From contig NZ_CP080442.1 in the NCBI RefSeq assembly GCF_019597925.1, positions 69,678 through 101,677 on the forward strand: a DNA stretch of 32,000 nt, read 5' to 3'. The notes below the pieces were generated by a model that did no database searches, was not told the origin of the DNA, and saw nothing but the letters and a program-made list of their open reading frames with translations. Source of the stretch: [Clostridium] scindens (GTDB taxonomy: Bacteria > Bacillota > Clostridia > Lachnospirales > Lachnospiraceae). The position numbers and the translations under genes were made by a program. Positions 48 to 29,343 of this stretch are shown piece after piece (the stretch's first letter is position 1; each line of letters begins with the position of its first letter).

Positions 48-3000
48 ATGAAGCGAAGCAGTCTGTGGGGATGGATAACAGGAAAGGCAGCCTTAAAAAG
101 AATCATAGCCGCAGGCGCGGTGATCGTTGGCCTGCCCATCGTCTGGCATAGTTACCAGAACGGCGGAATATTCGACCCGGATAGTTATGCGAAAAACCAA
201 AAAGTACAGGATAACCAGGTTATTTTCCCGGAGGAGGATGAGTACAGCCAGGAAGACGGCGGGAAGGGAGACAGCGATCTGTGGGAGAAAGACCACAAGG
301 CAGAAGAGAAGCTGAACCCGGAAGATATGCCGGACTCCTCCATCCTGTTTGAAACGAAGGGAAAACTGGCGGAATTTGGAAGCGCCGATCAGATGACCTC
401 TGATGCGAACCAGCCAGGAGGCATTCCCGGAAGCCCGGACGGAGATGACGGGCCGACGATCCTGGTTCCGGGAGGGGACGGGAGTATCACAGTACCTGAC
501 GGAACATTTGGGCCAGATGGGAACCACAATGGGAACGGATCCGAAGGAAACGGAGGCGGGGATGATTCCCATCCATCCGTGGATCCTGATCCCATTATTC
601 CAGACCCGGATCCCAGGCCGGAACTGCCGCCCGACATCTATGAAGGATTAATTCCGGTAGAGACATTTCCGGATGGAGGAATATCAGGGGACGGCAGCAA
701 TGTGAAGATTACCTTAAGGCTCACTGAGGATATATATGAGACAAACCCCATCTATTACGGGGAGGTACTGGATGACTGGAAGCTGTTCTGTGCTGTCTGC
801 GTCTATGTGGATGTGGATAGCGGGGAAGGCATGTCAACAATATACCGGATAGAAGACTATAATGAGAACTTTAAAATCGGAAGTTTTCCCAAGGTGGCTA
901 AGGAAGACTTTTCCGTTGATTTTTACTTTCGGCCAAATAAAGGAAGCAAATGGCAGAAGGAAACCTGGAATTATAAGGTAAAGCCATTCAAAGTCATGTT
1001 CAGCGGATGGGAAGAGGGAACCTATTCATCACCGGCATGGTATCCACAGATCGGAGAGACCAGGAATCTACTGAATTACTATCCGGACGTACTTCCAGAA
1101 GAGTGGGTGGATATCCGGTCCCTTCCCATTGACCTGCCGGAAATGTTCCCGGGATGGTCGGAGACGCCGCAGGGCGAGCCGGTACCGCTGATATACGCTC
1201 CGATGCTTCCGGGACGTCATGTGCTGTATCCTCTGGAATTGGTTCCGGTACCGGAAGGAATGAGCGTCAGTATGGAAATGAACTGGAACTATTGGATGTG
1301 CCTGCAGACGCTGAATGAATATACCGGCAGCAGGGAGATGCTGGAGGTGCCGGATGGTATTGGAATGATTGACCTGTATGGGGTAAGCGTGGATGCGATC
1401 AAGATTCCCAGTTCCGTGCTGGAAGTGAACCTGGATGCTTTTGGGCTGGAGGTTAGCCAGTCTTACCAAGTGGATGAGGAGAATCCTAATTACGCTTCCT
1501 TTGAAGGCATGCTTCTTAACAAAGATAAGACGGTCCTATATGCGGTCCCGTCAGAAAAGAAGACGGTTACCGTACCGGAAACCGTGACATATGCGGAGAT
1601 ATCCAATAATGCGATCGAAGAGATGCATTTTCAGTCCGGCATGCCAATCAAACTGGAACTTGAAAACCTTCACGATGCGTCTCTATATGTTCCGGCGGAG
1701 GCGTATTTCACGTATCTTGCAGCCTGGGGAGACCGGCTTGGAAGCAACAGGCTTCTTCCGGATAATGGCGCTGATGCAGAGTTTATTATCCAAGACGGGG
1801 CGATCTTATCTAGAGATGGCAAGATTCTGTATGGGCTGCTGGATTCTGTGGGTGGCATCTATGCGGTTCCGGACAAAGTGGAGTACATAGAGGAAGGAGC
1901 ATTTGCAGGCAGCGCCAGCCTGTCTACAGTTATCCTGCCAGATAGCGTGAAGTCTCTGAATGCCCAGGCAATGACGGGCAGACAGATATCCTGTATTATC
2001 TGCCTGGGAGCTGAGCCGCCTGCTATTAAGGGGGACAGTTTTGATAATCTGGACGTTCTTCAAGTACAGGTTCCCAAAGGAGCCGGAGAATCTTATGTGG
2101 ACGCGTGGACGCAGGCGCTGGGCAGGGAGAAAGCTGAGGCGATCGTGACGGAGGCGTTCAATCAGATGGAGAGCAAGGATGGATATACTTATCTGACGCA
2201 GGAAGATGGGGCGGTTCTTCTGAAAGTGCCGGAGGATCTGGTGTACTTTAACGGAAATGAATTGCAGGATGTTACGATCAAGGAGATTGGAAGCAACGTA
2301 TTTTCCAATTGCGGACAGTTGCTGGTGGCAGAACTGCCAGAAAGCGTCAAAAGAATTGGCGAGGGCGCATTTGAAAAATGTAGAGAAATCCAGGGTATTG
2401 TAAGTTATTCCACCGATACGGTGACCGTGGGAGAGAATGCATTTGCAGGCTGCAGCAAGTTAAGGTTCCTGGCATTCAATGCTGCTTCGGCCACCTTTGA
2501 AAATGAATATTGGCCAGGAGGAGGCATGAAATACTGCGTACCGGAGGGGGCAAGCGGATATAACGGCAATCATGTGCCGCCAGGCTGTGCTTCATATTTC
2601 CTGGAAAGCCAGAATGAAGGCCGGCTGCTTTATGGAGAGGATGAAGAAGGCAGGTATCTGCTAGCCGCTACCGATAATATTACAGGAGAGGTGCTGTTGC
2701 TGCCCGATACCTTGGAGATTGACGACGAAGCCATGTCTGGCTGCGGAGAATCATTTACCTTAGATTCGGCAGGGATGGCAAGGCTGCGCTATATAGGGGA
2801 TTATGCCTTCATGGATTCCGGGGTGACCGGGGATATCATACTTCCAGATACGCTAAGATATCTCGGCGGTTATACGTTCTATGGATGTACAGGCATCTCA
2901 TCCATCCATATAGATGGCCCTCTTGACTGGTACAAGAATGAATTTCATGGCCCGGAACTTAGAAGCAGCGTATTTTCGGGGTGTACAAATCTGGAAACAG

Positions 3001-3683
3001 TGACCTTTGGAAGCGAATGCGGAGTGAAAACGATCGGAGAAGAAGCATTCTGGAATACGGCGCTGAAGTCTATCGACCTTCCGGAAGGAGTCACAGGCCT
3101 TCTTTCAGGCGCGTTTGGCTGTACACAATTGACAGAGATCAAGATTCCCGCCAATATGGAAAATATATATTACTCCGTCTTTGATAGCTGCTCGAAACTT
3201 AAAAAAGTAGAGTTTAGCAGTGACATTCCGCCAAGCCTGATCCTATATGGGGTAGGATATGGATATCTCTTTGGCATGGATCTGCCGGATGACTTCCGTA
3301 TTGTGCTATCAGGAAATGCGGCTGGAAAAGAGGAAGCCTATATTGAGGCATGGAAATATGCTATGATAGGCTACGGAGCGGATGATCAGAATGAACTGTC
3401 GCAAGACCAGATAAGAGAAGGCGAGAATATCGTGCGGAGACTGCTGGGGCTTGAGGCGGCGCGCATTGAGGCGGCTCCTGCACCGGTAGCGCCGGATGCC
3501 ATGCCAGCGCAGGAAGAAGAGAACGAGAGCGAAGATGCCGGGGGCGAGCCGCAGATTGACGATGTACAAGACAAGGCGGAAGATGCTGGAACCGGCAATG
3601 GGAACGCCGGGACAGATGCAGAGGCCGACCATGCAGAGCCGGAGTCCGGCAAGGCAGAGAATGAGGGGGAAGAAGAGTTATGA
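48..3683 (+). CDS. Large membrane-anchored surface protein with BspA-type leucine-rich repeats, a Pro/Asp/Gly-rich N-terminal linker and an acidic C-terminal tail
   Basis: 1211-aa ORF. N-terminal hydrophobic anchor (AALKRIIAAGAVIVGLPIVW). Repeated LRR_5-like units (IGEGAFEKCREIQGI; IGDYAFMDSGVTGDIILPDTLRYLGGYTFYGCTGISSIHI; IGEEAFWNTALKSIDLPEGV). No LPXTG motif seen. The stop overlaps the next start (ATGA at 3680-3683). Confidence 0.8.
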   Translation: MKRSSLWGWITGKAALKRIIAAGAVIVGLPIVWHSYQNGGIFDPDSYAKNQKVQDNQVIFPEEDEYSQEDGGKGDSDLWEKDHKAEEKLNPEDMPDSSILFETKGKLAEFGSADQMTSDANQPGGIPGSPDGDDGPTILVPGGDGSITVPDGTFGPDGNHNGNGSEGNGGGDDSHPSVDPDPIIPDPDPRPELPPDIYEGLIPVETFPDGGISGDGSNVKITLRLTEDIYETNPIYYGEVLDDWKLFCAVCVYVDVDSGEGMSTIYRIEDYNENFKIGSFPKVAKEDFSVDFYFRPNKGSKWQKETWNYKVKPFKVMFSGWEEGTYSSPAWYPQIGETRNLLNYYPDVLPEEWVDIRSLPIDLPEMFPGWSETPQGEPVPLIYAPMLPGRHVLYPLELVPVPEGMSVSMEMNWNYWMCLQTLNEYTGSREMLEVPDGIGMIDLYGVSVDAIKIPSSVLEVNLDAFGLEVSQSYQVDEENPNYASFEGMLLNKDKTVLYAVPSEKKTVTVPETVTYAEISNNAIEEMHFQSGMPIKLELENLHDASLYVPAEAYFTYLAAWGDRLGSNRLLPDNGADAEFIIQDGAILSRDGKILYGLLDSVGGIYAVPDKVEYIEEGAFAGSASLSTVILPDSVKSLNAQAMTGRQISCIICLGAEPPAIKGDSFDNLDVLQVQVPKGAGESYVDAWTQALGREKAEAIVTEAFNQMESKDGYTYLTQEDGAVLLKVPEDLVYFNGNELQDVTIKEIGSNVFSNCGQLLVAELPESVKRIGEGAFEKCREIQGIVSYSTDTVTVGENAFAGCSKLRFLAFNAASATFENEYWPGGGMKYCVPEGASGYNGNHVPPGCASYFLESQNEGRLLYGEDEEGRYLLAATDNITGEVLLLPDTLEIDDEAMSGCGESFTLDSAGMARLRYIGDYAFMDSGVTGDIILPDTLRYLGGYTFYGCTGISSIHIDGPLDWYKNEFHGPELRSSVFSGCTNLETVTFGSECGVKTIGEEAFWNTALKSIDLPEGVTGLLSGAFGCTQLTEIKIPANMENIYYSVFDSCSKLKKVEFSSDIPPSLILYGVGYGYLFGMDLPDDFRIVLSGNAAGKEEAYIEAWKYAMIGYGADDQNELSQDQIREGENIVRRLLGLEAARIEAAPAPVAPDAMPAQEEENESEDAGGEPQIDDVQDKAEDAGTGNGNAGTDAEADHAEPESGKAENEGEEEL

Positions 3684-4633
3684 TTATCGAACAGTCGGAA
3701 CATATTGTCCGGGAAGTCAGGAAGGCTTTTATCGGAAAAGACGAGATTATAAAGAAGGTGCTGATGACGATATACGCCGGAGGCCACATTCTTCTGGAAG
3801 ATTCTCCGGGGGTGGGAAAGACCGCTCTGGCGCTGGCGTTTTCCAGAGCCATTGGACTGGATTATAAGAGAATCCAGTTTACGACGGATACGCTTCCGTC
3901 GGATATTACCGGGTTTACTATGTTCAACCGGCAGGCCAATGAGTTTGTATATCATGAAGGCGCGGCAAACTGCAACCTTCTGCTGGCGGATGAGATCAAC
4001 CGTACTTCGCCGAAGACGCAGGCAGCCCTTCTGGAGGCCATGGAGGAGAATAATGTTACCGTAGATGGAGTGACCCATATGCTGCCTTCGCCGTTTATCT
4101 GCATCGCGACCCAGAACCCTTTTGGAACGTCAGGCACCCAGCCGCTGCCGGAATCTCAGATGGACCGTTTCATGACAAGGCTGTCTATCGGGTATCCGTC
4201 AGCCGAAGATCAGATGCAGATCCTGAAGGCGCACCGGTACGCCAACCCACTGGAAGACATTCAGGTGGTGGCAACCAGAGAAAATATCCTGGAGGTCAGG
4301 AATTATCTGTCCTCCGTGCGGCTAAACGATGATATGCTCCGCTATATTATAAAACTGTGTGAAGAGACCCGGCAGCTTCCACTGGTGGAACTGGGCATCA
4401 GTCCCCGTGGAGTGCAGGCGTTGACGAGGATGTCCAAGGCTCATGCGATTCTGCATGAAAGAGGCTATGTTGTTCCGGAAGACGTGCAGGCTGTCTTTGT
4501 AGACGTGTGTGCCCATCGTCTGGTACTGAGGCCTCAGGCCAGGGTAGAAGGCGTGACGGAGCGTGATCTTTTGGCGGATATCCTCAAAAGATTCCAGGCG
4601 CCTGCAATGAATAAGAGGTGGAAGAATGAATAA
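3680..4633 (+). CDS. MoxR-family AAA+ ATPase
   Basis: 317 aa. Walker A (SPGVGKTALA), Walker B (LLLADEINR) and the typical MoxR C-terminal region (ISPRGVQAL...AHAILHERGYVVPEDV). Overlaps both neighbouring genes. Confidence 0.9.
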   Translation: MIIEQSEHIVREVRKAFIGKDEIIKKVLMTIYAGGHILLEDSPGVGKTALALAFSRAIGLDYKRIQFTTDTLPSDITGFTMFNRQANEFVYHEGAANCNLLLADEINRTSPKTQAALLEAMEENNVTVDGVTHMLPSPFICIATQNPFGTSGTQPLPESQMDRFMTRLSIGYPSAEDQMQILKAHRYANPLEDIQVVATRENILEVRNYLSSVRLNDDMLRYIIKLCEETRQLPLVELGISPRGVQALTRMSKAHAILHERGYVVPEDVQAVFVDVCAHRLVLRPQARVEGVTERDLLADILKRFQAPAMNKRWKNE

Positions 4634-5798
4634 AAGCCGGAAGATATATGGGAGTATCTTTCTCTTCTCCCTTTTCATCCTCCTTCTGTCCGGCAGCCGG
4701 TATGTCTTAGCGGCAGTGGCAGCAGAGGCCGCCCTTTTGCTCTTGCTAAGGATACTTCTGTCTGTTGATGCAAAAGGCATCCAGCTAATGCAGAAAATGC
4801 AAACGGCATGCGTTGCCGGACAGGAACTGGAGATATCTATGGAGGCACTTTCGAAAAGGCGGCTTAGGGCAGCCGGAATTCTGGAAGTTACTATGGCATA
4901 CCGTAATGTGCTGTTTGGGTTTACAGGGAGGCAGCAGATTCAGATTCCCCTTGCAGGCAGACAGGAATCCTTTCTGATACCGTTTGGCTCTGAACTGTGC
5001 GGGGAAGTGCATGTGAAGGTAGAAAAGGCTGTCTGCTATGACCTTTTCGGCCTGTGCAGGGCGGAATTGGAATGTCCGGGCGAGCAGATGCTGACGGTGC
5101 ATCCCGGGAAGGTGCCGATACGCCTGCTGCTCAAGCGGCAGCCCCAGGGATATCTGGAAGGGGAACAGTATTATCAGAGCCGGAAGGGCAATGATGTAAG
5201 CGAGGTCTTTGACTTGAGGGAATATTACCCGGGAGATGACATCCGCTCAATTCACTGGAAACTGTCCAGCAAGATGGATTCTGTGATTGTCAGGGAAGGA
5301 AGCGACACGTCCCATTATGATACGATTCTTCTATTTGATGCCGGGCTTGGAGGCAAAGAGAAGCAGTGGGATAAGAAAGTATTGTCATCTGCCGTAGAAC
5401 TGGGGATCTCTGTAAGCGGCAGGCTAATTGAGCTGGGAATACCCCATTATATAGGAATACCGGCAGGGGACAGGATTTTGCGGCTTCAAGTGTCAGATCG
5501 TGCGGATTATCTGCAGATGATAGATATCTGGATGGGGATCACTCTTCCAAAGAAGAGCGGAATAGTACTCCAGAACTTTCTGATTGAGAAAATGCAGAAG
5601 GAGTATACAAAGCTTATCTATGTTGCGGTGGGAGAATATTCGGAAGAATTATTCCAGATGGAAGGGGAACTGGACATGACGGCAATATGCCTGCAGGAGA
5701 ACGGCGATCAGGTGGGACTGACGCAGAGAGGCTCAAGCCAGCTGGTGGAACTTCCCTATGATCTGCTGTACAGCCATCCTCATAATATATCTATATAA
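4626..5798 (+). CDS. DUF58 domain-containing protein (MoxR partner)
   Basis: 390 aa. N-terminal TM segment. DUF58 signature REYYPGDDIRSIHWKLSSK. 8-nt overlap with the MoxR gene. Confidence 0.85.
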   Translation: MNKSRKIYGSIFLFSLFILLLSGSRYVLAAVAAEAALLLLLRILLSVDAKGIQLMQKMQTACVAGQELEISMEALSKRRLRAAGILEVTMAYRNVLFGFTGRQQIQIPLAGRQESFLIPFGSELCGEVHVKVEKAVCYDLFGLCRAELECPGEQMLTVHPGKVPIRLLLKRQPQGYLEGEQYYQSRKGNDVSEVFDLREYYPGDDIRSIHWKLSSKMDSVIVREGSDTSHYDTILLFDAGLGGKEKQWDKKVLSSAVELGISVSGRLIELGIPHYIGIPAGDRILRLQVSDRADYLQMIDIWMGITLPKKSGIVLQNFLIEKMQKEYTKLIYVAVGEYSEELFQMEGELDMTAICLQENGDQVGLTQRGSSQLVELPYDLLYSHPHNISI

Positions 5799-5850
5799 CA
5801 AGAATCCTTCCTCAAAGGATCATGAAGGATAGCAAAGGAGAGACATTAAG

Positions 5851-8181
5851 ATGCGCATGCGAAACCAGGAGGATGCGGTAAAAAGAATAGAACTGAAAAG
5901 CGCATCCAAGAGCATGCAGGCAGAAAGACTGTGGCAGTTTCTCCTGGCGGCGCTTCTTTTGATAGGAATGCTTAGATCCTACCTGGACTGCGTGACGCTT
6001 AGCGGAATGCATGCGTGGATACTTTCTGTTGCAGGAGGCGCTGCGCTTCTGTGCTGCGCCGTATTATCATCTCACCCAAGGACAAGCGCATATGCAACGC
6101 TTCCGCCTGTGGCGGCCGGAGTGATCTGGACTGTCATATCTGGAATCAGGGAGGTATATGGCGGCTTTCTGGGAGTGATGAATTATCTGATCAGCTGGTG
6201 GAATCTAAGATATGATGACGGGAAGAATCTGTTTCAGGGAGAAACGATCACTCAGCAAGGAATAGAGGCATTTTCCGTAGTAATGATCCTAGCGGTTACG
6301 GCGGTCGTGTGGGAGATGGTGCAAAAAAGGAGGAGCGTCCTGTCCGGAATTCTTTTGATGCTATATCTGGCTCCTGGCCTCATATTAGGCTATTTGTCTA
6401 CAGTGACTGCCTCCATTTTGCTGACGGCCGGGGTCGGGATGTGGCTTCACCGGATTCAGGGAGGCAGGCAGTTGCAGAGAGGATTGTGGACAGCTGGTCT
6501 GGGAATCCTATTCTTTGCGTTAGCGGTTTGCGTAGGAGGAGAAAGCCTGAAGGGAATCGAGCATTTCCGCAAGGAAAGCGCCCGTCAGATCCGGGACATG
6601 CGGTTTGGCGAAGATTCGCTGCCGGAAGGCAATATGTATAGGGCGGATTCTATGCTTGACGGGGATGAGGAGACATTGGAGGTTGCAACAAGGCAAGTGA
6701 AGTCCATGTATCTTCGCGGCTTCGTAGGGGGCTGCTATGAAGAAGGGATCTGGACGCCGCTTAAGAATTCCGCGTTTGGCGGAGAAAATGCGGGAATGAT
6801 GGGATGGCTCAAGAAACAGGGGTTCTATACAGCAAGCCAGTATTTCGCCTATGCCAGTATAAAAGAGCAGGAGGAGATTCCGAAGAACCAGGTAGAGATT
6901 AAAAATATCGGCGCGCGCAGAAACTATATTTACATGCCTTATTCCGCACAAAGGCCGAAGAAGACGCAGGCTCATCAGGAGCAGGATGCGAATTTCCAGT
7001 CATCCAGCTTCCTTGGAAGCAGGGAGTATGCCTATTCAGAGCGGTCAGAAAATATTCCGGCAGAATTGCTTCATGTATCAGGCTGGGTGTCCAGCCCTTC
7101 CGGGAAAGAAGAAAAAGCCTACCAGGAAGAGGAAGCAGTCTATCGCAGTTTCGTGTACGAGAATTATCTGGACGTGGATGATTCCCTGGTGGGCTTGATG
7201 GACTTCCTGTTCTGGGCCGATGCAAAGCCGGAGGAGAAGGATGGCATCTATACGTCTACCGACAGGATACGGACCATTTTAAGAGAAATGACATCTTATA
7301 AAGCGAATCCGGAAGCAGTGCCGGAAGGAGAAGAGCCCGTGCGCTGGTTTCTTACGGAAGGGCGGCAGGGAAATGCGGCGCTATATGCCACCACTGCGGT
7401 GCAGGCGTATCGTGCAAACGGGATACCGGCCAGGTATGCGGAAGGCTATCTGCTTAAGGAAGCGGAAGTGGCGGATTCCAAGAATGGAAAAGTCACGCTT
7501 ACCAGCCAGGACAGCCATGCCTGGGCGGAAGTCTATACGGATGGCATCGGCTGGGTCCCGATTGATGTGACGCCGGGATTCTATTATGATACATATGCGT
7601 TGATGGAAATGGTACAGAAGCCTCAGGGAATCCAGCAGACGGCTGCCGTGGAAGATACGGAAAATGATGCGGATCAGGTTAATGACAAAGGTCAGAAAGG
7701 GACGGAGGAGGAAAAGGACAAGACTTCCGAAACCATTCTTCAGGCTGTGCTGGGGGCAGGGGTCATGGTGCTGATCGTTATAACGGCTCTGATCATATTT
7801 TTGGAGAGCCGGCGCTATCTATGTCTGAGGAGACTGGCTCGGAATTACCGGGATGCCGGGGAGGAAGGCAAGGCGCGCATTCTGTGCCATGCAGTCATCG
7901 AATTTCTGCGTATGGCTGGGATAGAAGCAATTCCCGGGTGGCAGGCGGAGGAGACGGAACAGGCATTGACGGAACTTGTGCCGGCCTTTCAGGAGGGAGA
8001 ATACATTAGGGTCAGCCATCTGATAGAAAAGCATATCTATGGAGACGAGGAATTGCGGGCACATGAGAAGAGAGCCCTGGCGAGTTTCATTGAAAAGATG
8101 AACAGGGAGAGGAAGAGATTAAAACTGCAAAGGCGGCTTCGCATTCGCTATTGCAGATGGCGCATAAAGCAAAAGATATAG
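5851..8181 (+). CDS. Polytopic membrane protein with a transglutaminase-like core domain (YebA-like); the catalytic Cys position appears to be replaced by Ala
   Basis: 776 aa. Several N-terminal TM helices and one C-terminal TM. Core motif GNAALYATTAVQAYRANGIPARYAEGY...SHAWAEVYTDGIGWVPIDVTPG. RBS AAAGGAG lies upstream. Confidence 0.8.
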   Translation: MRMRNQEDAVKRIELKSASKSMQAERLWQFLLAALLLIGMLRSYLDCVTLSGMHAWILSVAGGAALLCCAVLSSHPRTSAYATLPPVAAGVIWTVISGIREVYGGFLGVMNYLISWWNLRYDDGKNLFQGETITQQGIEAFSVVMILAVTAVVWEMVQKRRSVLSGILLMLYLAPGLILGYLSTVTASILLTAGVGMWLHRIQGGRQLQRGLWTAGLGILFFALAVCVGGESLKGIEHFRKESARQIRDMRFGEDSLPEGNMYRADSMLDGDEETLEVATRQVKSMYLRGFVGGCYEEGIWTPLKNSAFGGENAGMMGWLKKQGFYTASQYFAYASIKEQEEIPKNQVEIKNIGARRNYIYMPYSAQRPKKTQAHQEQDANFQSSSFLGSREYAYSERSENIPAELLHVSGWVSSPSGKEEKAYQEEEAVYRSFVYENYLDVDDSLVGLMDFLFWADAKPEEKDGIYTSTDRIRTILREMTSYKANPEAVPEGEEPVRWFLTEGRQGNAALYATTAVQAYRANGIPARYAEGYLLKEAEVADSKNGKVTLTSQDSHAWAEVYTDGIGWVPIDVTPGFYYDTYALMEMVQKPQGIQQTAAVEDTENDADQVNDKGQKGTEEEKDKTSETILQAVLGAGVMVLIVITALIIFLESRRYLCLRRLARNYRDAGEEGKARILCHAVIEFLRMAGIEAIPGWQAEETEQALTELVPAFQEGEYIRVSHLIEKHIYGDEELRAHEKRALASFIEKMNRERKRLKLQRRLRIRYCRWRIKQKI

Positions 8182-15845: not shown

Positions 15846-15904
15846 GAAAAAAATAAGGCGTCCATGGGGATGATTCGAATTTTTTTCGAAAATGTGATGA
15901 AACA

Positions 15905-15933
15905 TTGACAATGAATAATTGAAAGAATAGAAT
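15905..15933 (+). promoter_or_regulatory. Near-consensus sigma-A promoter
   Basis: TTGACA (15905-15910), a 17-nt spacer, then TAGAAT (15928-15933). Confidence 0.6.
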
Positions 15934-15949
15934 AAACTCAAAATATAAG

Positions 15950-15996
15950 GGTACACAGACAAAGGCGTCGGAACTTTGTCTGCGTGCCTTTTTTTG
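15950..15996 (+). terminator. Strong intrinsic terminator or attenuator hairpin in the dat leader
   Basis: 15-bp stem (15950-15964 pairing with 15974-15988, one A/C mismatch and one G-U), a 9-nt loop, then a T7 run at 15989-15995. It sits about 10 nt after the predicted TSS and 20 nt before the dat RBS. Confidence 0.7.
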
Positions 15997-16028
15997 TTGC
16001 ATAAACTATGAATTTGGAGGAAGAAAAG

Positions 16029-16874
16029 ATGAAAACATTGGGCTATTATAACGGTAAATTTGGCGAACTTGAGGACATGAGCATTCCGATGAACGACCGC
16101 GTATGCTGGTTTGGCGACGGCGTCTATGACGCAGGGCCGTCCAGAAATTATAAGATATTCGCGATGGATGAACATGTAGACAGATTCTTTAACAGCGCAG
16201 GCCTGTTAGACATAAAGATGCCGATGTCGAAGGAAGAATTAAAGGCGCTCCTGCAGGAGATGGTAGATAAGATGGATACGGGAAACCTGTTTGTATACTA
16301 CCAGGCAACCAGGGGGACAGGAATCCGCAATCACGCATATACAAAAGGACCGGCCAACCTGTGGATCATGCTGAAGCCGGCAGAGATATCCGACGGAAAA
16401 GAACCTATAAAATTGATTACCTGCGAAGATACAAGATTCCTACACTGCAACATAAAGACCTTGAATCTGATTCCTTCCGTGGTGGCGACGCAGAAAGCCC
16501 AGGATGCCGGATGCCAGGAGGCAGTATTCTACCGTGCAGGAGGGCGGGTGACAGAATGCGCGCATAGCAATGTACATATTATCCAGGACGGCAAACTTGT
16601 GACAGCCCCAACCGATAACCTGATTCTTCCGGGAATCGCGAGAGCGCATATCATCAAAGCCTGCAAGAAACTCGGAATTCCGGTAAGCGAGACGCCATAT
16701 ACGCTGGATGATCTTTTTAAAGCGGAAGAAGTAATCGTATCAAGTTCCAGCAATCTCTGCTTGTATGCCAATGAGATTGACGGCAGGGCGGTAGGCGGAA
16801 AGAATCCGGAATTGCTGGAGAACATCCGCAGCGAAGTACTGAATGAATTTTATGAGGCTACAGAAGCAGAATAA
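16029..16874 (+). CDS. dat: D-amino-acid (D-alanine) aminotransferase, PLP fold-type IV
   Basis: Start at ATG 16029, after the RBS GGAGG. Motifs FGDGVYD, YYQATRG, and RFLHCNIKTLNL (compare Bacillus Dat RWLRCDIKSLNL). Confidence 0.8.
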   Translation: MKTLGYYNGKFGELEDMSIPMNDRVCWFGDGVYDAGPSRNYKIFAMDEHVDRFFNSAGLLDIKMPMSKEELKALLQEMVDKMDTGNLFVYYQATRGTGIRNHAYTKGPANLWIMLKPAEISDGKEPIKLITCEDTRFLHCNIKTLNLIPSVVATQKAQDAGCQEAVFYRAGGRVTECAHSNVHIIQDGKLVTAPTDNLILPGIARAHIIKACKKLGIPVSETPYTLDDLFKAEEVIVSSSSNLCLYANEIDGRAVGGKNPELLENIRSEVLNEFYEATEAE

Positions 16875-16893
16875 CAGACGGAAGGGTGAAGTC

Positions 16894-17634
16894 ATGGGAG
16901 AGATTAGATTTATGGCGGCAGGAGACAGGGCTATGGTGGCGGAGTTTGGAAATGTGATTGACAATGCCGTCAATAACAAGATTCATCTCCTGGCCGCAAG
17001 GATTACGGCAGAACATCTGCCGGGGATAGAAGAACTGGTTCCGACATTTCGGTCCCTGATGATATATTACGATCCTCTGTACACTTCCTTTGGAGAGTTA
17101 AGACAGAGGATAGAGGCATTGGGGAGCATTTCCGGAGAGGCGGTCAGAAAGAAGAAGCGTATTCTTAAGATTCCCTGCTGTTATGGGGCGCGATTCGGGC
17201 TGGATCTAAGAAGCATGGAAGCGTATACCGGGCTCGACCGGGACGAGATTATAGACATCCACAGTTCCGTGGACTACAAGATCTATATGATGGGCTTTCT
17301 TCCTGGTTTCGTATATCTAGGCGGTCTGGATAAAAGGATTGAGATGCCAAGACTTGAGACGCCTCGCGTGAAGATACTTCCCGGGGCGGTAGGGATCGGA
17401 GGAGGCCAGACTGGCATATATCCGCTGGCGTCTCCGGGTGGCTGGAGGCTGATGGGAGGAACCCCTGTCGACTTCTATGATCCGGACAGAAAAGAGCCAA
17501 TCCTTTGCAAGGCCGGAGAATACATACGTTTTGTACCAATTACCATCGGCGATTATTATGAGATCCGCCATCAGGTAGTAAAAGGAGACTATCAGGTAGA
17601 AATTGTGGAAGAAGGTGAAGAAGGATGTCCATAA
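16894..17634 (+). CDS. pxpB: 5-oxoprolinase subunit B (KipI / allophanate hydrolase subunit 1 family)
   Basis: Start at ATG 16894 (MGEIRFMAAGDRAMVAEFG). Motifs MMGFLPGFVYLGGLD and GIYPLASPGGW. Confidence 0.85.
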   Translation: MGEIRFMAAGDRAMVAEFGNVIDNAVNNKIHLLAARITAEHLPGIEELVPTFRSLMIYYDPLYTSFGELRQRIEALGSISGEAVRKKKRILKIPCCYGARFGLDLRSMEAYTGLDRDEIIDIHSSVDYKIYMMGFLPGFVYLGGLDKRIEMPRLETPRVKILPGAVGIGGGQTGIYPLASPGGWRLMGGTPVDFYDPDRKEPILCKAGEYIRFVPITIGDYYEIRHQVVKGDYQVEIVEEGEEGCP

Positions 17635-18533
17635 AAATCACAATGCCCGGAGCGCTGACTACGGTGCAGGATGCCGGAAGGTTCGGCTATCAGAAATCCG
17701 GCATAGGAACCTCCGGGGTCATGGATCTGGAATCATACCAGAAGGCAAATTACCTGGTAGGAAATGAGTCCGGGGAAGCCGTCCTGGAGTTTACCTTATT
17801 TGGCGGAGCGATGGAATTAACGGAGGATGGGATAATCGCTATTACGGGTGCAGATATGGAGCCGACATTAAACGACAGACCCATAGCCATGAATCAGCCG
17901 GTTCCGGTAAGATCAGGGGATGTCCTTGCGTTCGGCATGGCAAAAGAAGGGTGCCGCTCCTATCTGGCCGTTGCCGGAGGCCTGGATGTCCCGGTGGTCC
18001 TTGGAAGCCGCGCTACCAATATGAAATGCAGGATGGGAGGATACGAAGGCCGTCCGCTTAAGGCAGGAGATGAAATCGCTGTCGGGGCAGACAGAAAAGA
18101 CTTTGACCAGATAAAAGACAGGCGTGTCAAAGCCCGTCAGTATCTGTCGGAAATCACGGTAAGAGTGGTAGAAGGCCCTCAGGCGGAGTACTTTACCGAG
18201 GGAGGCAAGAAGACCTTCTATAAAGAAACCTACACCATATCTGACCAGAGCGACCGCATGGGCTATCGCATGGAAGGAAAGAAGATCGAAAGCGTTTCCG
18301 GCACCGACATCATATCGGACGGGATCGCATTGGGCTCCGTCCAGGTACCGGCCGACGGAAGGCCGATCGTGCTTCTTGCCGACAGGCAGACCACAGGAGG
18401 ATATGCGAAGATTGCCACCGTGTGCTCCTTTGATATTCCCAAACTGGTGCAGGGTAGACCCGGGGACAGAGTCAGATTTGTCCGGATATCCGTAGAAGAA
18501 GCGCAGAAGATCAACAGAAAGCGGGGAATCTAG
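17625..18533 (+). CDS. pxpC: 5-oxoprolinase subunit C (KipA / allophanate hydrolase subunit 2 family)
   Basis: 302 aa. PGALTTVQDAGRFGYQKSGIGTSGVMD, and QTTGGYAKIATV near the C-terminus. 10-nt overlap with pxpB. Confidence 0.85.
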   Translation: MSIKITMPGALTTVQDAGRFGYQKSGIGTSGVMDLESYQKANYLVGNESGEAVLEFTLFGGAMELTEDGIIAITGADMEPTLNDRPIAMNQPVPVRSGDVLAFGMAKEGCRSYLAVAGGLDVPVVLGSRATNMKCRMGGYEGRPLKAGDEIAVGADRKDFDQIKDRRVKARQYLSEITVRVVEGPQAEYFTEGGKKTFYKETYTISDQSDRMGYRMEGKKIESVSGTDIISDGIALGSVQVPADGRPIVLLADRQTTGGYAKIATVCSFDIPKLVQGRPGDRVRFVRISVEEAQKINRKRGI

Positions 18534-19322
18534 ATGAAGAATTATTATGATATGAAGCCGACAGAGGTAAGGAAATTGATCCGTGAAGGGAAGATCGTGG
18601 GCCCGACTTCCGGAATGTGTGCCGGATATGCCCAGGCCAATTTGGTAATCCTGCCAAAAGAACTGGCTTATGATTTCCTTCTCTTTACGCAGAGGAACCC
18701 CAAGTCCTGCCCAATCCTGGAAGTCAGCGACGTGGGGAGCAGGAAACTGCATTACATCGCTGATGACGCGGATATCGCAACAGATATTCCGAAGTACCGC
18801 ATCTACAGACAGGGAGAACTGGAAGGAGAGTACGGAAATGTGGAAGACTTCTGGCAGGATGACTTTGTCAGCTTCCTGATCGGATGCAGCTTTTCATTTG
18901 AATCGGCCCTTCTGGATGCGGGGCTTCCGGTGAGACATATTGAGGAACACTGCAATGTGCCAATGTACAAGACGAACATCCCCTGTACGCCGGCCGGGGT
19001 ATTTGAAGGAAACATGGTGGTCAGCATGAGGCCGCTTCCCTATGATCAGGTGGCTGAGGCAGTGATGGTGACAGGAGAGATGCCACGGGTCCATGGCGCG
19101 CCGATCCATATCGGAGATCCTGAAGTGATTGGGATTATAGATATTGACCAGCCGGATTTTGGGGACCGCGTCACAATCCGGGATGGCGAAGTGCCAGTAT
19201 TCTGGCCCTGTGGCGTGACGCCTCAGAACGTCATCATGAATGTCAGGCCGGATCTTGTTATCACGCATTCCCCGGGTCATATGCTGATCACCGATGTGAA
19301 AAACGTGGAATTAAAATATTAA
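18534..19322 (+). CDS. DUF1445 / UPF0317 putative hydro-lyase (D-glutamate-cyclase-type domain)
   Basis: 262 aa. GMCAGYAQANLVILP, QRNPKSCPILEV, and HGAPIHIGDPEVIGI...FWPCGVTPQ. The start abuts the pxpC stop. Confidence 0.75.
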   Translation: MKNYYDMKPTEVRKLIREGKIVGPTSGMCAGYAQANLVILPKELAYDFLLFTQRNPKSCPILEVSDVGSRKLHYIADDADIATDIPKYRIYRQGELEGEYGNVEDFWQDDFVSFLIGCSFSFESALLDAGLPVRHIEEHCNVPMYKTNIPCTPAGVFEGNMVVSMRPLPYDQVAEAVMVTGEMPRVHGAPIHIGDPEVIGIIDIDQPDFGDRVTIRDGEVPVFWPCGVTPQNVIMNVRPDLVITHSPGHMLITDVKNVELKY

Positions 19323-19349
19323 CGATATATCAGAGAGAAGGAATAAAGA

Positions 19350-20120
19350 ATGTATGCGGTAGATTTGAACTGCGATCTTGGAGAAAGTTACGGAAATTAT
19401 ATCTGTGGAATGGATGAAGAAGTGATTCCCTACATTTCCTCCGCAAATATAGCCTGCGGATTCCATGCATCCGATCCAATGGTAATGGGCAAGACGGTTG
19501 CGCTGGCAAAAAAGCAGAATGTATGTGTCGGCGCGCATCCTGGCTATCCAGACCTGGTGGGGTTTGGAAGGCGTAACATGGCAGTCTCCCCGGAAGAAGT
19601 AAAGGCAATGGTACAGTACCAGATGGGAGCGCTGATGGCACTTTGTAAAGCGCAAGGCATGCGACTTGCGCATGTGAAGCCTCATGGAGCCATGTACAAC
19701 ATGGCAGCAAAAGATGAGAAACTGGCCCTGGCGATCTGCCAGGGAATCAAGGAAGTCGATCCGGAACTGATCCTGCTCGGCCTGTCGGGAAGCGAGATGC
19801 TTAAGGCGGCTGAAAAGATCGGGCTTAAGGCAGCCAGGGAAGTATTTGCCGACCGGGCTTATGAAGAAGATGGGTCTCTGGTGGCCAGAAGCAAGGAAGG
19901 CGCCATGATTACAGATGAAGAAGAAGCGATCAGAAGGGTCATAATGATGGTGAAGGAAGGAAAGGTTACAGCAATCACCGGAAAAGAGATTGCGGTAACC
20001 CCCCACTCTGTCTGTATACATGGAGATGGGCCGAAGGCACTTGCATTTGTTCAGAAGATACGCAAGACGCTGGAAGCAGAGGGGATTACGATAGCACCGC
20101 TTAAAGAAGTCATTGGCTAG
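19350..20120 (+). CDS. pxpA: 5-oxoprolinase subunit A (LamB/YcsF family)
   Basis: 256 aa. N-terminal VDLNCDLGESYG, ANIACGFHASDP, KPHGAMYN and ICIHGDGP. Confidence 0.88.
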   Translation: MYAVDLNCDLGESYGNYICGMDEEVIPYISSANIACGFHASDPMVMGKTVALAKKQNVCVGAHPGYPDLVGFGRRNMAVSPEEVKAMVQYQMGALMALCKAQGMRLAHVKPHGAMYNMAAKDEKLALAICQGIKEVDPELILLGLSGSEMLKAAEKIGLKAAREVFADRAYEEDGSLVARSKEGAMITDEEEAIRRVIMMVKEGKVTAITGKEIAVTPHSVCIHGDGPKALAFVQKIRKTLEAEGITIAPLKEVIG

Positions 20121-20171
20121 ACTGCCTGAGATGTCAGGCCGGGGATATGAGATGTAAAGGAGTGACATAGT

Positions 20172-21026
20172 TTGGAAGCACAAGCACAGGTTAAGAGGGA
20201 AACTGTAGAAGATATTATATTGCGCCATTCAAAACGCGGCATGCATGTACTGCGAAAATATATGGATACCCATTATTGCCAGAAAGCCGTGGAGAAACTC
20301 TTATCTCTGCCATATGGAAATATATTGCTCACCACAGGGTTCTATGTGGAAGGGCATGCAGAGACGGACGGGCCGCTTGGGACGATGACGCTAGGAAAGG
20401 CATTGGCCAAACTTGGCTACCATCCCATAATCGTTACGGATAAATACTGTAAGGGATTCTTCGAAGTAGAAGGCCTGGAGGTAAAATATGTGCATCTTGG
20501 CGATGGAAAAGAGGAATATGAGAAACTGCTGGAGGAATGCCAGCCGGTAGCACTGATCTCCATAGAAAGATGCGGGCGCAATGTCCAGAATGATTATGCA
20601 AATATGCGGGGGATCAGCATAAAGGACAAGACCGCAAGAACCGACATCCTGTTTGAAATGGCCAGGCAAGAAGGGATTCCTACCTTCGGGGTAGGCGATG
20701 GCGGCAATGAGATCGGAATGGGAAATCTAAAAGAAGTCATTATGAGCAAACTGGCCTTGACCCCTTGCGATATAGAAGTGGATGCCCTTATTATCGCCAC
20801 AGTATCCAACTGGGGAGCATATGCGCTGGCGGCGTATATGCAGAAGATTAAGAAGATAAAAGTACTTCCTACATATAAGGAGATTGAAAATTATCTGAAG
20901 ACTATTGTCAGGATGGGAAGTGTAGACGGAGTCACAAAAGAGCAGGCCATGAGCGTGGATGGATTCTCGCTGGAGGTAGAGCGTGAGATTCTGGAAGAAT
21001 TGCATAGGGCCGTGAGATCCTATTAA
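20172..21026 (+). CDS. DUF4392 domain protein (the other half of the D-glutamate-cyclase architecture)
   Basis: 284 aa with a TTG start, after the RBS AAAGGAG. Motifs TTGFYV, IERCGRN, GVGDGGNEIGMGN and ATVSNWGAYAL. Confidence 0.65.
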   Translation: MEAQAQVKRETVEDIILRHSKRGMHVLRKYMDTHYCQKAVEKLLSLPYGNILLTTGFYVEGHAETDGPLGTMTLGKALAKLGYHPIIVTDKYCKGFFEVEGLEVKYVHLGDGKEEYEKLLEECQPVALISIERCGRNVQNDYANMRGISIKDKTARTDILFEMARQEGIPTFGVGDGGNEIGMGNLKEVIMSKLALTPCDIEVDALIIATVSNWGAYALAAYMQKIKKIKVLPTYKEIENYLKTIVRMGSVDGVTKEQAMSVDGFSLEVEREILEELHRAVRSY

Positions 21027-21484
21027 GCAGAATCATCCCCGGGCGGCAGAGTTGCGTGAATATTCTTCTCCGTACGCAGTACATAGTGGGTGCGGGTCTG
21101 GCATACTCCGGCCTGGCCCTTGACCCACTGATGGATATGTTCAAGATGCTCGGGAGAACGGCAGGCCACCTTCAGAATGTAGTCGGAGTCTCCAGTAAGG
21201 TAATAGCAGGAAATGATGTTCGGATGCTCTCCTACATTCTCCACAAAGGAGTCATTGTAGCGGGGGTGCTCCAAAGTCACTTCAATCAAGGCAGTGACGG
21301 CATTGCCAATCCGGGAATCATTGGTTATGACGGTGTAAGATTCAATGATGCCCAGAGCCTCCATTTTCCGAATTCGCTCAATGACGGTGGAAACCGACAG
21401 ATGGACAGCCTTGCTGATATCCGAGGCCTTCATCCTTGCATTTTCTTTTAAGTTTTTAAGAATCTCATAATCCAGATGATCCAC
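21023..21484 (-). CDS. Lrp/AsnC-family transcriptional regulator
   Basis: 153 aa. N-terminal HTH (LDYEILKNLKENARMKASDISKAVHLSVSTVIERIRKME) and a C-terminal RAM/AsnC_trans_reg-like domain. 4-bp convergent overlap with the preceding gene. Confidence 0.88.
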   Translation of the reverse strand: MDHLDYEILKNLKENARMKASDISKAVHLSVSTVIERIRKMEALGIIESYTVITNDSRIGNAVTALIEVTLEHPRYNDSFVENVGEHPNIISCYYLTGDSDYILKVACRSPEHLEHIHQWVKGQAGVCQTRTHYVLRTEKNIHATLPPGDDSA

Positions 21485-27827: not shown

Positions 27828-28178
27828 CTAAACCAGCACGGCTACGGCTTCTTTCTGCCTTAAATGAGCAGTAAGGATATCTAAAAATTCGCTGGATGTA
27901 GGCTGCGAGTCAAGAGGACGAAGGGCAATTTCCTGAAGCAGGCGGCGGTTGCCTCTTTCCCAACAGACTCTAATGACGGTTCTGATATCTCTTTCTACGC
28001 TGCTGCTAGTAGTATGATAGTATTTTGCAATCTGAGGATATAATAATTTGCTCACGGACAGAAGATAGTCTTCGTCTCTCAAACATAGTTTCACCCCATA
28101 GTTCAGATACCGGTATCCACGGTAGGTTGCGCCGATGCCAAGAGCACGTATAAGACATTCGATTTCTAGTTCGCTCAT
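27828..28178 (-). CDS. Stand-alone Spo0A C-terminal (DNA-binding) domain protein
   Basis: ALGIGATYRGYRYLNYGV...LYPQIAKYYHTTSSSVERDIRTVIRVCWERGN parallels the Spo0A effector domain (...KGYLYL...[32 protein letters not shown]). There is no receiver domain. Start at ATG 28178 is preferred (RBS GAGGA 7 nt upstream) over the GTG at 28274. Confidence 0.75.
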   Translation of the reverse strand: MSELEIECLIRALGIGATYRGYRYLNYGVKLCLRDEDYLLSVSKLLYPQIAKYYHTTSSSVERDIRTVIRVCWERGNRRLLQEIALRPLDSQPTSSEFLDILTAHLRQKEAVAVLV

Positions 28179-28286
28179 GTGATTTTCCTCATCTAATGCC
28201 TTACATTGAAAAACAAATATGCTATGTGCTTCTATTATATAGGATATTTCTTCGATATGTTGCGACTCGGACACAATAAGTAAGAG

Positions 28287-28303
28287 TTCGACTCATTTCG
28301 ACA
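28287..28303 (-). promoter_or_regulatory. Tandem Spo0A-box-like sites (AGTCGAA and TGTCGAA on the - strand, 10-bp spacing)
   Basis: TTCGACT at 28287-28293 and TTCGACA at 28297-28303 on the + strand. The second is a perfect match to the Bacillus 0A box TGTCGAA. Located just upstream of the -35 of the GH25 promoter. Confidence 0.45.
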
Positions 28304-28311
28304 TATCCAAG

Positions 28312-28341
28312 TTAACAAAAACAGAAGAATCAACATATAGT
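28312..28341 (+). promoter_or_regulatory. Candidate promoter of the GH25 muramidase gene
   Basis: TTAACA (28312-28317), an 18-nt spacer, then TATAGT (28336-28341). Confidence 0.45.
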
Positions 28342-28365
28342 ATATAAAAAAGAAGGTGGGACATT

Positions 28366-29343
28366 ATGAGCATCCATGGAATAGATGTAAGCAGATTTCA
28401 GGGCAGCATAGACTGGGAGGCCGTAAGAGCGGGCGGAATACAGTTTGCCATGATCCGGGCCGGTTATGGAGAAGGGACCGTGGACCAGGAGTTCAGGAGA
28501 AATGCCAGCCAGTGCAATCAGGCTGGGCTGCCGTTCGGAGTGTACTGGTTTTCCTATGCGTATACGCCGGAAATGGCCAGGCAGGAGGCGGAATTCTGCA
28601 TTAATGCCATATCCGGATACGAGGTACAGTATCCGGTCTGCTTTGACTTTGAATATGCATCGGTAGACTATGCGGAAAATCAAGGCGTAAATGTGACAAA
28701 GGAACTGGCCACTTCTCTGGTAGATGCATTCTGTCAGAGAGTTGAGGAGTTGGGATATTTTGCCATGTATTACAGCAACCTGGATTTTCTTAACCGGATG
28801 TTCGACGCTTCCTTAAGAAGCAAGTATGCGCTCTGGTACGCGCAGTATGCTGCAGAGCCAGCTGTCAGCGGAATGGCTATTTGGCAGTATAGTGACACTG
28901 GGCGAGTAAATGGCATATCTGGGAACGTTGACCAGGATATTGCCTATTATGATCTGGCAAATGTAATATCCAGGGCTGGACTGAATCGGCTAAGAGGCGA
29001 GGTATCTACGCCGGATTCCGCGACGCCGGAACCCAATGACGTGATTACCTATATCGTTAAGCCTGGGGATACCTTAAGCGGGATAGCGCTTAGGTTTGGA
29101 ACGACATATCAGGAGATTGCCGCGTACAACAACATTTCTAATCCCAATCTAATCTATGCGGGACAGCGTCTGCTGATCCCACTGGGATATAATCCGCAAA
29201 AAGTGCGCTATTACACCATTCAGCCAGGGGATACCTTAAGCGGAATTGCCCTTAAGTTTGGAACGACCGTGGCGCAGCTGCAGCGCCTGAACGGCATTCG
29301 CAATCCCAACCTGATCTATGCGGGAACTACGATCAGAGTATGA
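28366..29343 (+). CDS. Glycoside hydrolase family 25 muramidase with two C-terminal LysM domains
   Basis: 325 aa. N-terminal [13 protein letters not shown]...FAMIRAGYG and DQDIAYYD. Two LysM repeats ([19 protein letters not shown]...[12 protein letters not shown] and [19 protein letters not shown]...[11 protein letters not shown]). Confidence 0.9.

Follow-up and report, generated by a model that had tools for sequence, protein, structure and literature searches.

A six-gene operon of [Clostridium] scindens that joins D-glutamate cyclase-type genes to pxpABC and a predicted D-amino-acid transaminase gene behind a candidate antiterminator leader

Six tightly packed genes lie on the + strand at positions 16029-21026 of a 32,000 nt stretch of the genome of [Clostridium] scindens, a human-gut member of the Lachnospiraceae (this whole stretch is termed the window). 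The first gene, dat (16029-16874), encodes a fold-type IV aminotransferase of the D-amino-acid transaminase (DAAT) type. It is followed by pxpB (16894-17634; KipI-type, CT_C_D, PF02682), pxpC (17625-18533; KipA-type, CT_A_B, PF02626), a gene for a DUF1445 (UPF0317) 'putative hydro-lyase' (18534-19322; PF07286), pxpA (19350-20120; PF03746), which encodes the LamB/YcsF lactamase subunit, and a gene for a DUF4392 protein (20172-21026; PF14336, GLUCM-like_C). A convergent gene on the - strand, asnC (21023-21484), encodes a regulator of the Lrp/AsnC family (PF01037 and PF13404). An earlier reading of this DNA from its letters alone (the original prediction) had assigned domains to the six open reading frames (ORFs), and a Pfam profile search matches every predicted model strongly.

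The tight packing described in that reading is likewise exact, with all coordinates in agreement. Specifically, 19 nt separate the dat stop codon from the pxpB start, the last 10 nt of pxpB (17625-17634) overlap with pxpC, the DUF1445 gene begins directly after the pxpC stop codon (18533/18534), and gaps of 27 nt and 51 nt precede pxpA and the DUF4392 gene, respectively. The overlap and the abutment suggest translational coupling. The first in-frame ATG of the dat ORF is at 16008, and we place the start at 16029 because the Shine-Dalgarno (SD) sequence GGAGG (16016-16020) precedes the ATG there. An SD sequence also precedes the pxpB ATG at 16894, and the DUF4392 gene begins with TTG behind the SD sequence AAAGGAG (20156-20162). 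At the 3′ end of the operon, the stop codons of the DUF4392 gene (+) and asnC (-) overlap in TTAA (21023-21026) and no terminator separates them, so the convergent transcripts must overlap.

PxpABC opens 5-oxo-L-proline with ATP, and all three of its subunit families are present together within positions 16894-20120. PxpA matches PF03746 LamB_YcsF (9e-108) and NCBIfam model NF003814 (387 bits, cutoff 226), and PxpB matches PF02682 CT_C_D (2.5e-70) and TIGR00370 PxpB (197 bits, cutoff 145.6). PxpC matches PF02626 CT_A_B (8e-98) and scores 328 bits with the domain model TIGR00724, above its cutoff of 230, and 283 bits with the equivalog NF045499, under its cutoff of 500. The window subunits are 48% (PxpA), 38% (PxpB) and 40% (PxpC) identical to those of E. 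coli.

Known PxpABC systems include E. coli ybgJKL, C. difficile kipOTIA, C. glutamicum pxpTABC and B. subtilis ycsF-ycsG-ycsI-kipI-kipA-kipR, wherein ycsG encodes a Mn importer. Compared with these systems, the window operon adds the DUF4392 gene and the transaminase gene, has the DUF1445 gene wedged between pxpC and pxpA, and is without a transporter or a GntR/IclR-type regulator. All six families are already annotated, and the link between DUF1445 and pxp genes is already present in the B. subtilis ycs/kip operon, which holds the DUF1445 gene ycsI (PMC10448178). The characterised PxpABC systems are described for 5-oxo-L-proline only, and the D form is unmentioned in the papers examined.

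The DUF1445 and DUF4392 proteins are homologous to the N-terminal and C-terminal halves, respectively, of a known enzyme, vertebrate D-glutamate cyclase. Mouse DGLUCY, a DUF1445-DUF4392 fusion, turns D-glutamate into 5-oxo-D-proline (PMC5339696). Both constituent domains of DGLUCY (C14orf159, EC 4.2.1.48) are found in the window with strong scores: PF07286 D-Glu_cyclase at 4.8e-71 and PF14336 GLUCM-like_C at 4.4e-80. DGLUCY is one mitochondrial fusion protein, whereas the window has two predicted polypeptides encoded either side of pxpA and embedded, together with a transaminase gene, in an operon for an ATP-dependent lactamase. The DUF1445 protein also matches NCBIfam NF003969 'putative hydro-lyase' (426 bits, cutoff 324) and the structural-genomics Protein Data Bank entries 2pif and 3db9, of unknown function, at about 1e-91 (1.5e-91). 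A single-sequence AlphaFold2 model of it had a mean pLDDT of 39.9 and was unusable.

The DUF4392 protein aligns with TON_0340 of Thermococcus onnurineus (4dwz) at 9e-27 over about 230 residues. Six acidic residues of TON_0340 bind two Mn/Mg ions (PMC5132392). All six of these ligands (E59, D61, E115, D157, E161 and D246) are kept in the window protein as E64, D66, E132, D176, E180 and D263, with little or no variation at these positions across an alignment of 66 sequences. TON_0340 differs from the window protein in that it is a stand-alone archaeal protein to which a weak generic phosphatase activity has been assigned; this activity is Mn-dependent, no physiological substrate has been assigned, and archaea are without DUF1445 (PMC5132392).

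DUF4392 is a large family, with 2,209 matches among 50%-identity representatives. To place the window operon among relatives, we used the best 80 of more than 594 species-representative genome matches to DUF4392, a sample in which relatives of the query are over-represented. The original prediction had called the division of the cyclase between two genes unusual. This part of it does not stand: prokaryotes usually encode the two halves as separate neighbouring genes (DUF1445 adjoins DUF4392 in 56/80 loci), and it is the fusion of vertebrates that appears exceptional. The pair is bare in 41/80 loci, mostly of Dehalococcoidia/SAR202 and Sulfurospirillum, where it lies among housekeeping genes; in Dehalococcoidia these neighbours are recG, degV, mutS and uvrB and give no functional hint. 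The pxp genes are also present in 15/80 loci, and a Dat-like gene in 16/80.

The complete gene set recurs well outside the Lachnospiraceae. Of the named relatives, [Clostridium] hylemonae (DUF4392 70% identical), Claveliimonas bilis and Blautia are the closest. In C. hylemonae the six genes and asnC recur among the same housekeeping neighbours, and in Jutongia the gene set has different flanks. Altogether, the set is found in at least eight orders, with representatives in Lachnospiraceae, Peptococcaceae, Negativicutes, Sulfurospirillum, Dehalococcoidia and marine Porticoccaceae, and the gene order is shuffled among them. The order dat-B-C-1445-A-4392 of the window is shared by Lachnospiraceae and Peptococcaceae. 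Other arrangements are B-C-1445-A-4392-dat (loci L017 and L018), 4392-dat-B-C-1445-A (Schwartzia), 1445-4392-A-B-C (Sulfurospirillum), 1445-A-B-C-4392 (Dehalococcoidia) and 1445-A-B-C::4392-dat-alr (Porticoccaceae, L165-L167, e.g. L165:4714-11411), wherein the double colon denotes a fusion.

This PxpC::DUF4392 fusion is represented by at least 22 sequence clusters from marine Porticoccaceae (50-100% identical, 584-607 aa). The class IV aminotransferase encoded after it also keeps the DAAT signature, and an alanine racemase gene follows. A second fusion, PxpA::DUF4392, occurs in five clusters with the context pxpB-pxpC-DUF1445-pxpA::DUF4392. Because the gene orders are shuffled across phyla and natural fusions exist, we conclude that there is a functional link among DUF1445, DUF4392, pxpABC and dat. 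The linkage put forward in the original prediction is thus borne out in other genomes, across several phyla.

DUF4392 has other associations as well. In five loci from five phyla it adjoins genes for a MurL-like epimerase and a MurD-like ligase (L031:9977-13715, L067:7211-10804, L071, L040 and L053), and in one Clostridiales genome it is next to murD (L016:9998-12395). MurL/MurD-like proteins handle D-glutamate in cell-wall synthesis, and this adjacency is an independent tie of DUF4392 to D-glutamate. A review of MurD2/MurL makes no mention of a DUF4392 partner. Six representatives of about 585 aa (P0121, P0125, P0142, P0145, P0147 and P0150) are fused to a C-terminal S-adenosylmethionine (SAM) methyltransferase. 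DUF4392 is likewise embedded in giant proteins of 2,300-3,760 aa (P0171, P0178, P0200, P0210 and P0268).

Two apparent fusions were rejected. A 656-aa DUF4392-MurL ORF in L040 is probably an artefact of the ORF caller, and a 584-aa DUF1445 ORF in Dehalococcoidia, in which Pfam sees a C-terminal DUF1445 alone, is probably over-extended in high-GC DNA. Among the loci with the gene set, one metagenome-assembled genome (L003/L005; L005:5798-7481) has a truncated DUF1445 match followed by about 1 kb without a match to cluster proteins, and L107 has about 1.3 kb between pxpA and the DUF4392 gene. These extra stretches may be insertions or decay.

The transaminase gene has a genomic distribution of its own. 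The window Dat matches Aminotran_4 (PF01063, 8e-46) and the DAAT of Bacillus sp. YM-1 (3daa, 2.7e-46). It resembles the Bacillus enzyme (3daa/1daa) in its fold type IV, its catalytic Lys and Glu and its carboxylate trap, and differs in genomic context and in a sub-cutoff NCBIfam score. In the alignment to 3daa, the segments GDGVYD, TRGTGIRNH, CNIKT, VTEC and LILPG are conserved, and Y31, R98, H100, K145, E177 and L201 (Bacillus YM-1 numbering) are kept. We take Lys145 and Glu177 to be the catalytic residues and Tyr31, Arg98 and His100 to be the carboxylate trap. DAAT interconverts D-glutamate and pyruvate with 2-oxoglutarate and D-alanine.

We examined 80 metagenome loci that carry Dat homologues 68-100% identical to the window protein; two human-gut contigs among them (L085 and L086) encode a Dat that is 100% identical. 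In 32 loci pxpB is the next gene after dat, and in 38 loci no pxp genes follow dat, 21 of which have at least 4 kb of downstream sequence. Thus the five-gene block from pxpB to DUF4392 is present or absent among close relatives. In L138-L142 (e.g. L141:5983-7386), which lack these five genes, dat is directly convergent with an asnC gene 69% identical to that of the window, which makes the block a present/absent cassette between dat and asnC. Furthermore, asnC precedes dat, in the same orientation, in L011, L020 and L153-L163.

On the basis of these arrangements, the AsnC regulator travels with dat and not with the cyclase/pxp block. The original prediction, in which the convergent regulator is named as a candidate sensor, is to be corrected on this point. 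The window AsnC protein itself has both expected domains, an N-terminal HTH_AsnC (PF13404, 3.7e-13) and a C-terminal AsnC_trans_reg (PF01037, 4.4e-17). The Porticoccaceae cluster also ends at an AsnC-type gene, which we did not count toward this linkage because it is transcribed divergently from putA and could encode PutR.

Additional genes near dat point to uptake and breakdown. In the closest sister lineage (L087-L093, Dat 86% identical), a gene for a symporter of the AGCS Na+/alanine family, which the operon of the window species lacks, precedes dat under the same leader (L087:4463-5965). In a prevalent gut lineage whose stand-alone Dat is 78% identical (L125:5986-10121), a gene for an S58 (DmpA-type) peptidase follows dat, and one for a pyroglutamyl peptidase (Peptidase_C15) is located about 2.5 kb downstream.

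The sequence upstream of dat contains, on the + strand, several features that are consistent with regulated expression. A sigma-70-like promoter, TTGACA-17 nt-TAGAAT (15905-15933), matches at 11/12 positions and is the best in the 8.7 kb scanned. A direct repeat, TTCGAA-N5-TTCGAA (15874-15890), lies 15 nt upstream of the -35 element, and similar AT-rich TTCGAA/TTCGnAA stretches are found upstream of the -35 element in L006, L008 and L004. As a speculation, this repeat might be an operator, e.g. for AsnC/Lrp. Between the promoter and the SD sequence lies a hairpin followed by U7 (15949-15995) that resembles an intrinsic terminator, with a fold energy of -26.9 kcal/mol and a z-score of -3.7. The layout of promoter, terminator and SD sequence recurs in divergent related loci. 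A terminator in this promoter-proximal position suggests inducible rather than constitutive control.

The 5′ arm of the leader terminator carries a mini-hairpin, GAC[AAAGGC]GUC (15958-15969), with a stem of 3 bp and a loop of six bases. This element, of the general form GRC[RRDGRN]GYC, is found in 18 of the 29 distinct leaders of clusters, a strong enrichment over the background rate, which is one per 15.2 kb on each strand. It occurs in the leaders of the window and of L001, L005-L008, L010, L011, L019, L020, L070, L087, L095, L100, L101, L107, L119, L135, L137 and L144. By the strict pattern, only 1/21 leaders of the Dat-alone loci has it, and that one precedes a dat-DUF4392 pair. The element also precedes the DUF4392-first operons of Schwartzia and the transporter-first operon of the sister species. 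The middle stem pair covaries (AU 12, GC 2, GU 2), and within the loop G4 is present in 17/17 leaders and position 1 is A in 12/17 and G in 5/17. No Rfam family reaches its gathering threshold in the window, and matches in the leader are at chance level only.

These features resemble the targets of ANTAR-domain antiterminators, which consist of hairpins that overlap a terminator, have a stem no shorter than 3 bp and carry A1 and G4 in a six-base loop (PMC3369931). The window mini-hairpin agrees with the EutV, NasR and AmiR targets in stem, A1/G4 loop and terminator overlap, and in its location upstream of nitrogen-metabolism genes. ANTAR sites are dual, whereas the window leader has a single hairpin: no second A1/G4 hairpin is nearby in the window, the sole other one lying 39 nt upstream, within the promoter, and a close second hairpin is seen only in L101, L107 and L006. 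Furthermore, no ORF scanned in the 32 kb window matches the ANTAR domain (PF03861), although a cognate regulator could be encoded elsewhere in the genome. With both the second hairpin and the ANTAR protein missing from the window, we reject a canonical ANTAR site and regard the leader mini-hairpin as a candidate antiterminator element.

The domain identities, the conservation of catalytic and metal-binding residues, the structure of the operon, its linkage across phyla and the fusions are established directly here, and from them we infer a pathway, including its substrates, flux direction, stereospecificity and complex formation. The reading that we favour, and to which we assign about an even chance, is that the operon serves to dispose of or use D-glutamate and its lactam 5-oxoproline by means of two modules in one leader-controlled operon. 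The first module, pxpB-pxpC-DUF1445-pxpA-DUF4392, would combine PxpABC as an ATP-dependent lactam-opening machine with DUF1445 and DUF4392 as a two-subunit bacterial counterpart of D-glutamate cyclase that interconverts D-glutamate with 5-oxo-D-proline, the DUF4392 subunit probably carrying a two-metal (Mn/Mg) site. The second module would consist of dat and the AsnC regulator. Dat would move the amino group of D-glutamate to pyruvate, yielding 2-oxoglutarate and D-alanine, and the latter would be racemised elsewhere. The net flow would run from 5-oxo-D-proline (and the L form) through glutamate to 2-oxoglutarate.

The D-glutamate theme is supported by the DAAT residues of Dat, by the alanine racemase gene of Porticoccaceae, which would complete a route from D-glutamate through D-alanine to L-alanine, and by the adjacency of DUF4392 to mur genes. 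To this extent, context and residues lend support to the D-glutamate/5-oxo-D-proline salvage envisaged in the original prediction; the frequent occurrence of dat on its own does not.

Within the pathway reading, opinion can be split roughly evenly between coupled and independently working units. If the units are coupled, the cyclase-type subunits would work physically with PxpABC, and ATP would drive the opening of the D-lactam. This coupling is favoured because opening of the D-lactam is uphill by itself, and both the Pxp::DUF4392 fusions and the translational coupling in the window speak for physical contact. In its most specific form, which we put forward tentatively and hold to be rather unlikely, PxpA, PxpB, PxpC, DUF1445 and DUF4392 would make up one ATP-driven 5-oxo-D-prolinase that feeds Dat and is switched on by the leader mini-hairpin as a hitherto undescribed antiterminator. 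To our knowledge, no organism has been described to have an ATP-driven 5-oxo-D-prolinase activity.

Several observations weigh against this pathway or against coupling within it. Stand-alone Dat homologues, 68-78% identical, occur in many relatives, and Dat may therefore be a general or biosynthetic enzyme. Its best class IV NCBIfam model, TIGR01121, yields 220 bits, under the equivalog cutoff of 277.45. PxpABC by itself is said, by Niehaus and co-workers in 2017, to suffice for 5-oxo-L-proline. The Pxp sequences of the window look ordinary and lend no support to a Pxp specialised for the D form: window PxpA shares 48% identity with the E. coli protein and just 37% with that of the Porticoccaceae cluster, and pairwise identities, which are not decisive either way, show no D-type Pxp subfamily across phyla. 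The bare DUF1445-DUF4392 pairs and the ATP-free action of DGLUCY indicate that the pair can work without Pxp. Finally, opening of the D-lactam by PxpABC and re-closing of the product by a free cyclase would amount to a futile cycle.

Some of these points lead to an alternative in which the operon encodes two co-regulated enzymes that form no complex. PxpABC would act with ATP on the L form only, an ATP-free cyclase would equilibrate D-glutamate with 5-oxo-D-proline, and Dat would pull the D branch, such that racemic pyroglutamate is handled by parallel L and D branches. We consider this a real possibility, short of probable. It agrees well with the 41/80 bare pairs, the occurrence of pxpABC alone in E. 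coli, the ordinary Pxp sequences and the lack of an ATP requirement in the mouse enzyme. The PxpC::DUF4392 and PxpA::DUF4392 fusions, however, are more readily understood if the units are coupled, be it physically or in sequence, and the constant position of DUF1445 between pxpC and pxpA also fits coupling better. Moreover, because unassisted opening of the D-lactam is thermodynamically unfavourable, flux toward Dat would be weak, and the known 5-oxoprolinases spend ATP.

A role in homeostasis of cell-wall D-glutamate seems unlikely. Dat would make D-glutamate from D-alanine and 2-oxoglutarate, the cyclase would dump or recover the excess, and PxpABC would repair 5-oxoproline that forms spontaneously. 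Alr plus Dat is a known D-glutamate synthesis route of bacilli, Dat homologues are widespread and often alone with AsnC, as expected of a housekeeping enzyme, DUF4392 lies beside murD or murL-murD-like genes in six loci, and a gene for meso-diaminopimelate dehydrogenase is located upstream of the operon in the window. Such a role is harder to reconcile with the uptake transporter that leads the sister-species operon, with the pyroglutamyl and S58 peptidases near the Dat-alone version, and with the inducible control suggested by the promoter-proximal terminator. The patchy distribution of the five-gene block among close relatives is also unlike that of an essential role.

We find it quite improbable that the cyclase annotation is misleading and that the operon acts on another lactam or D-amino-acid substrate, such as a substituted pyrrolidone carboxylate, a gamma-D-glutamyl peptidoglycan fragment or a butyrolactam-like compound. 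PxpABC paralogues of P. putida do differ in lactam specificity, with paralogues that act on butyrolactam and not 5-oxoproline, TON_0340 is known just as a weak Mn-dependent phosphatase, and DUF4392 is also fused to SAM methyltransferases. Against this stand three independent ties of DUF4392 to D-glutamate, namely the DGLUCY fusion, the adjacency to Dat and the adjacency to murL/murD. The residues of the DUF4392 active-site cavity are also near-invariant family-wide (PMC5132392, and the alignment made here), which suggests one shared small substrate. Lastly, an accidental or syntenic grouping through shared Lachnospiraceae ancestry, which the synteny of the whole C. hylemonae neighbourhood with its housekeeping flanks might invite, is effectively refuted by the different flanks in Jutongia, by the recurrence in at least eight orders of several phyla, and by the fusions.

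In the searchable literature, which excludes most subscription journals, we found no characterisation of bacterial DUF1445 or DUF4392 proteins, in keeping with the original prediction that the function of the bacterial pair is not experimentally defined. Split DGLUCY homologues in gut bacteria have already been tabulated in a preprint (PMC11580864). Within the same literature we found no description, experimental or comparative, of the full six-gene pathway, the Pxp::DUF4392 fusions, the connection to Dat and Alr, or the leader motif.

D-Glutamate is a major component of peptidoglycan, and 5-oxo-D-proline is excreted by humans. The operon bears on how anaerobes might dispose of these two compounds, on whether a PxpABC-type lactamase can be re-tooled for the D enantiomer, and on the roles of each half of D-glutamate cyclase. 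DUF1445 and DUF4392 are large, widespread families, for which a single mouse enzyme supplies the sole assigned activity, and the operon offers a testable hypothesis in the cultivable gut bacteria C. hylemonae and Claveliimonas bilis. If the five-subunit enzyme exists, it would give gut anaerobes an oxygen-independent route for consuming peptidoglycan D-glutamate and host-excreted 5-oxo-D-proline. The conserved motif of the leader may represent a new RNA regulator of D-amino-acid metabolism. If the D-glutamate reading is wrong, the locus would be a co-regulated set of known enzyme families.

The genes for citrate synthase and an alpha/beta-hydrolase upstream of dat were considered as further operon members and rejected, since only some relatives share their synteny and a hairpin and a promoter intervene. 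Elsewhere in the window, at positions 48-8181 and 27828-29343, there are genes for a 1,211-aa BspA-type leucine-rich repeat protein, a MoxR-DUF58-transglutaminase trio, a GH25-LysM lysozyme and a 148-aa protein with the C-terminal domain of Spo0A only. The GC content is about 0.50 at first and falls to 0.37-0.46 past about 21 kb.

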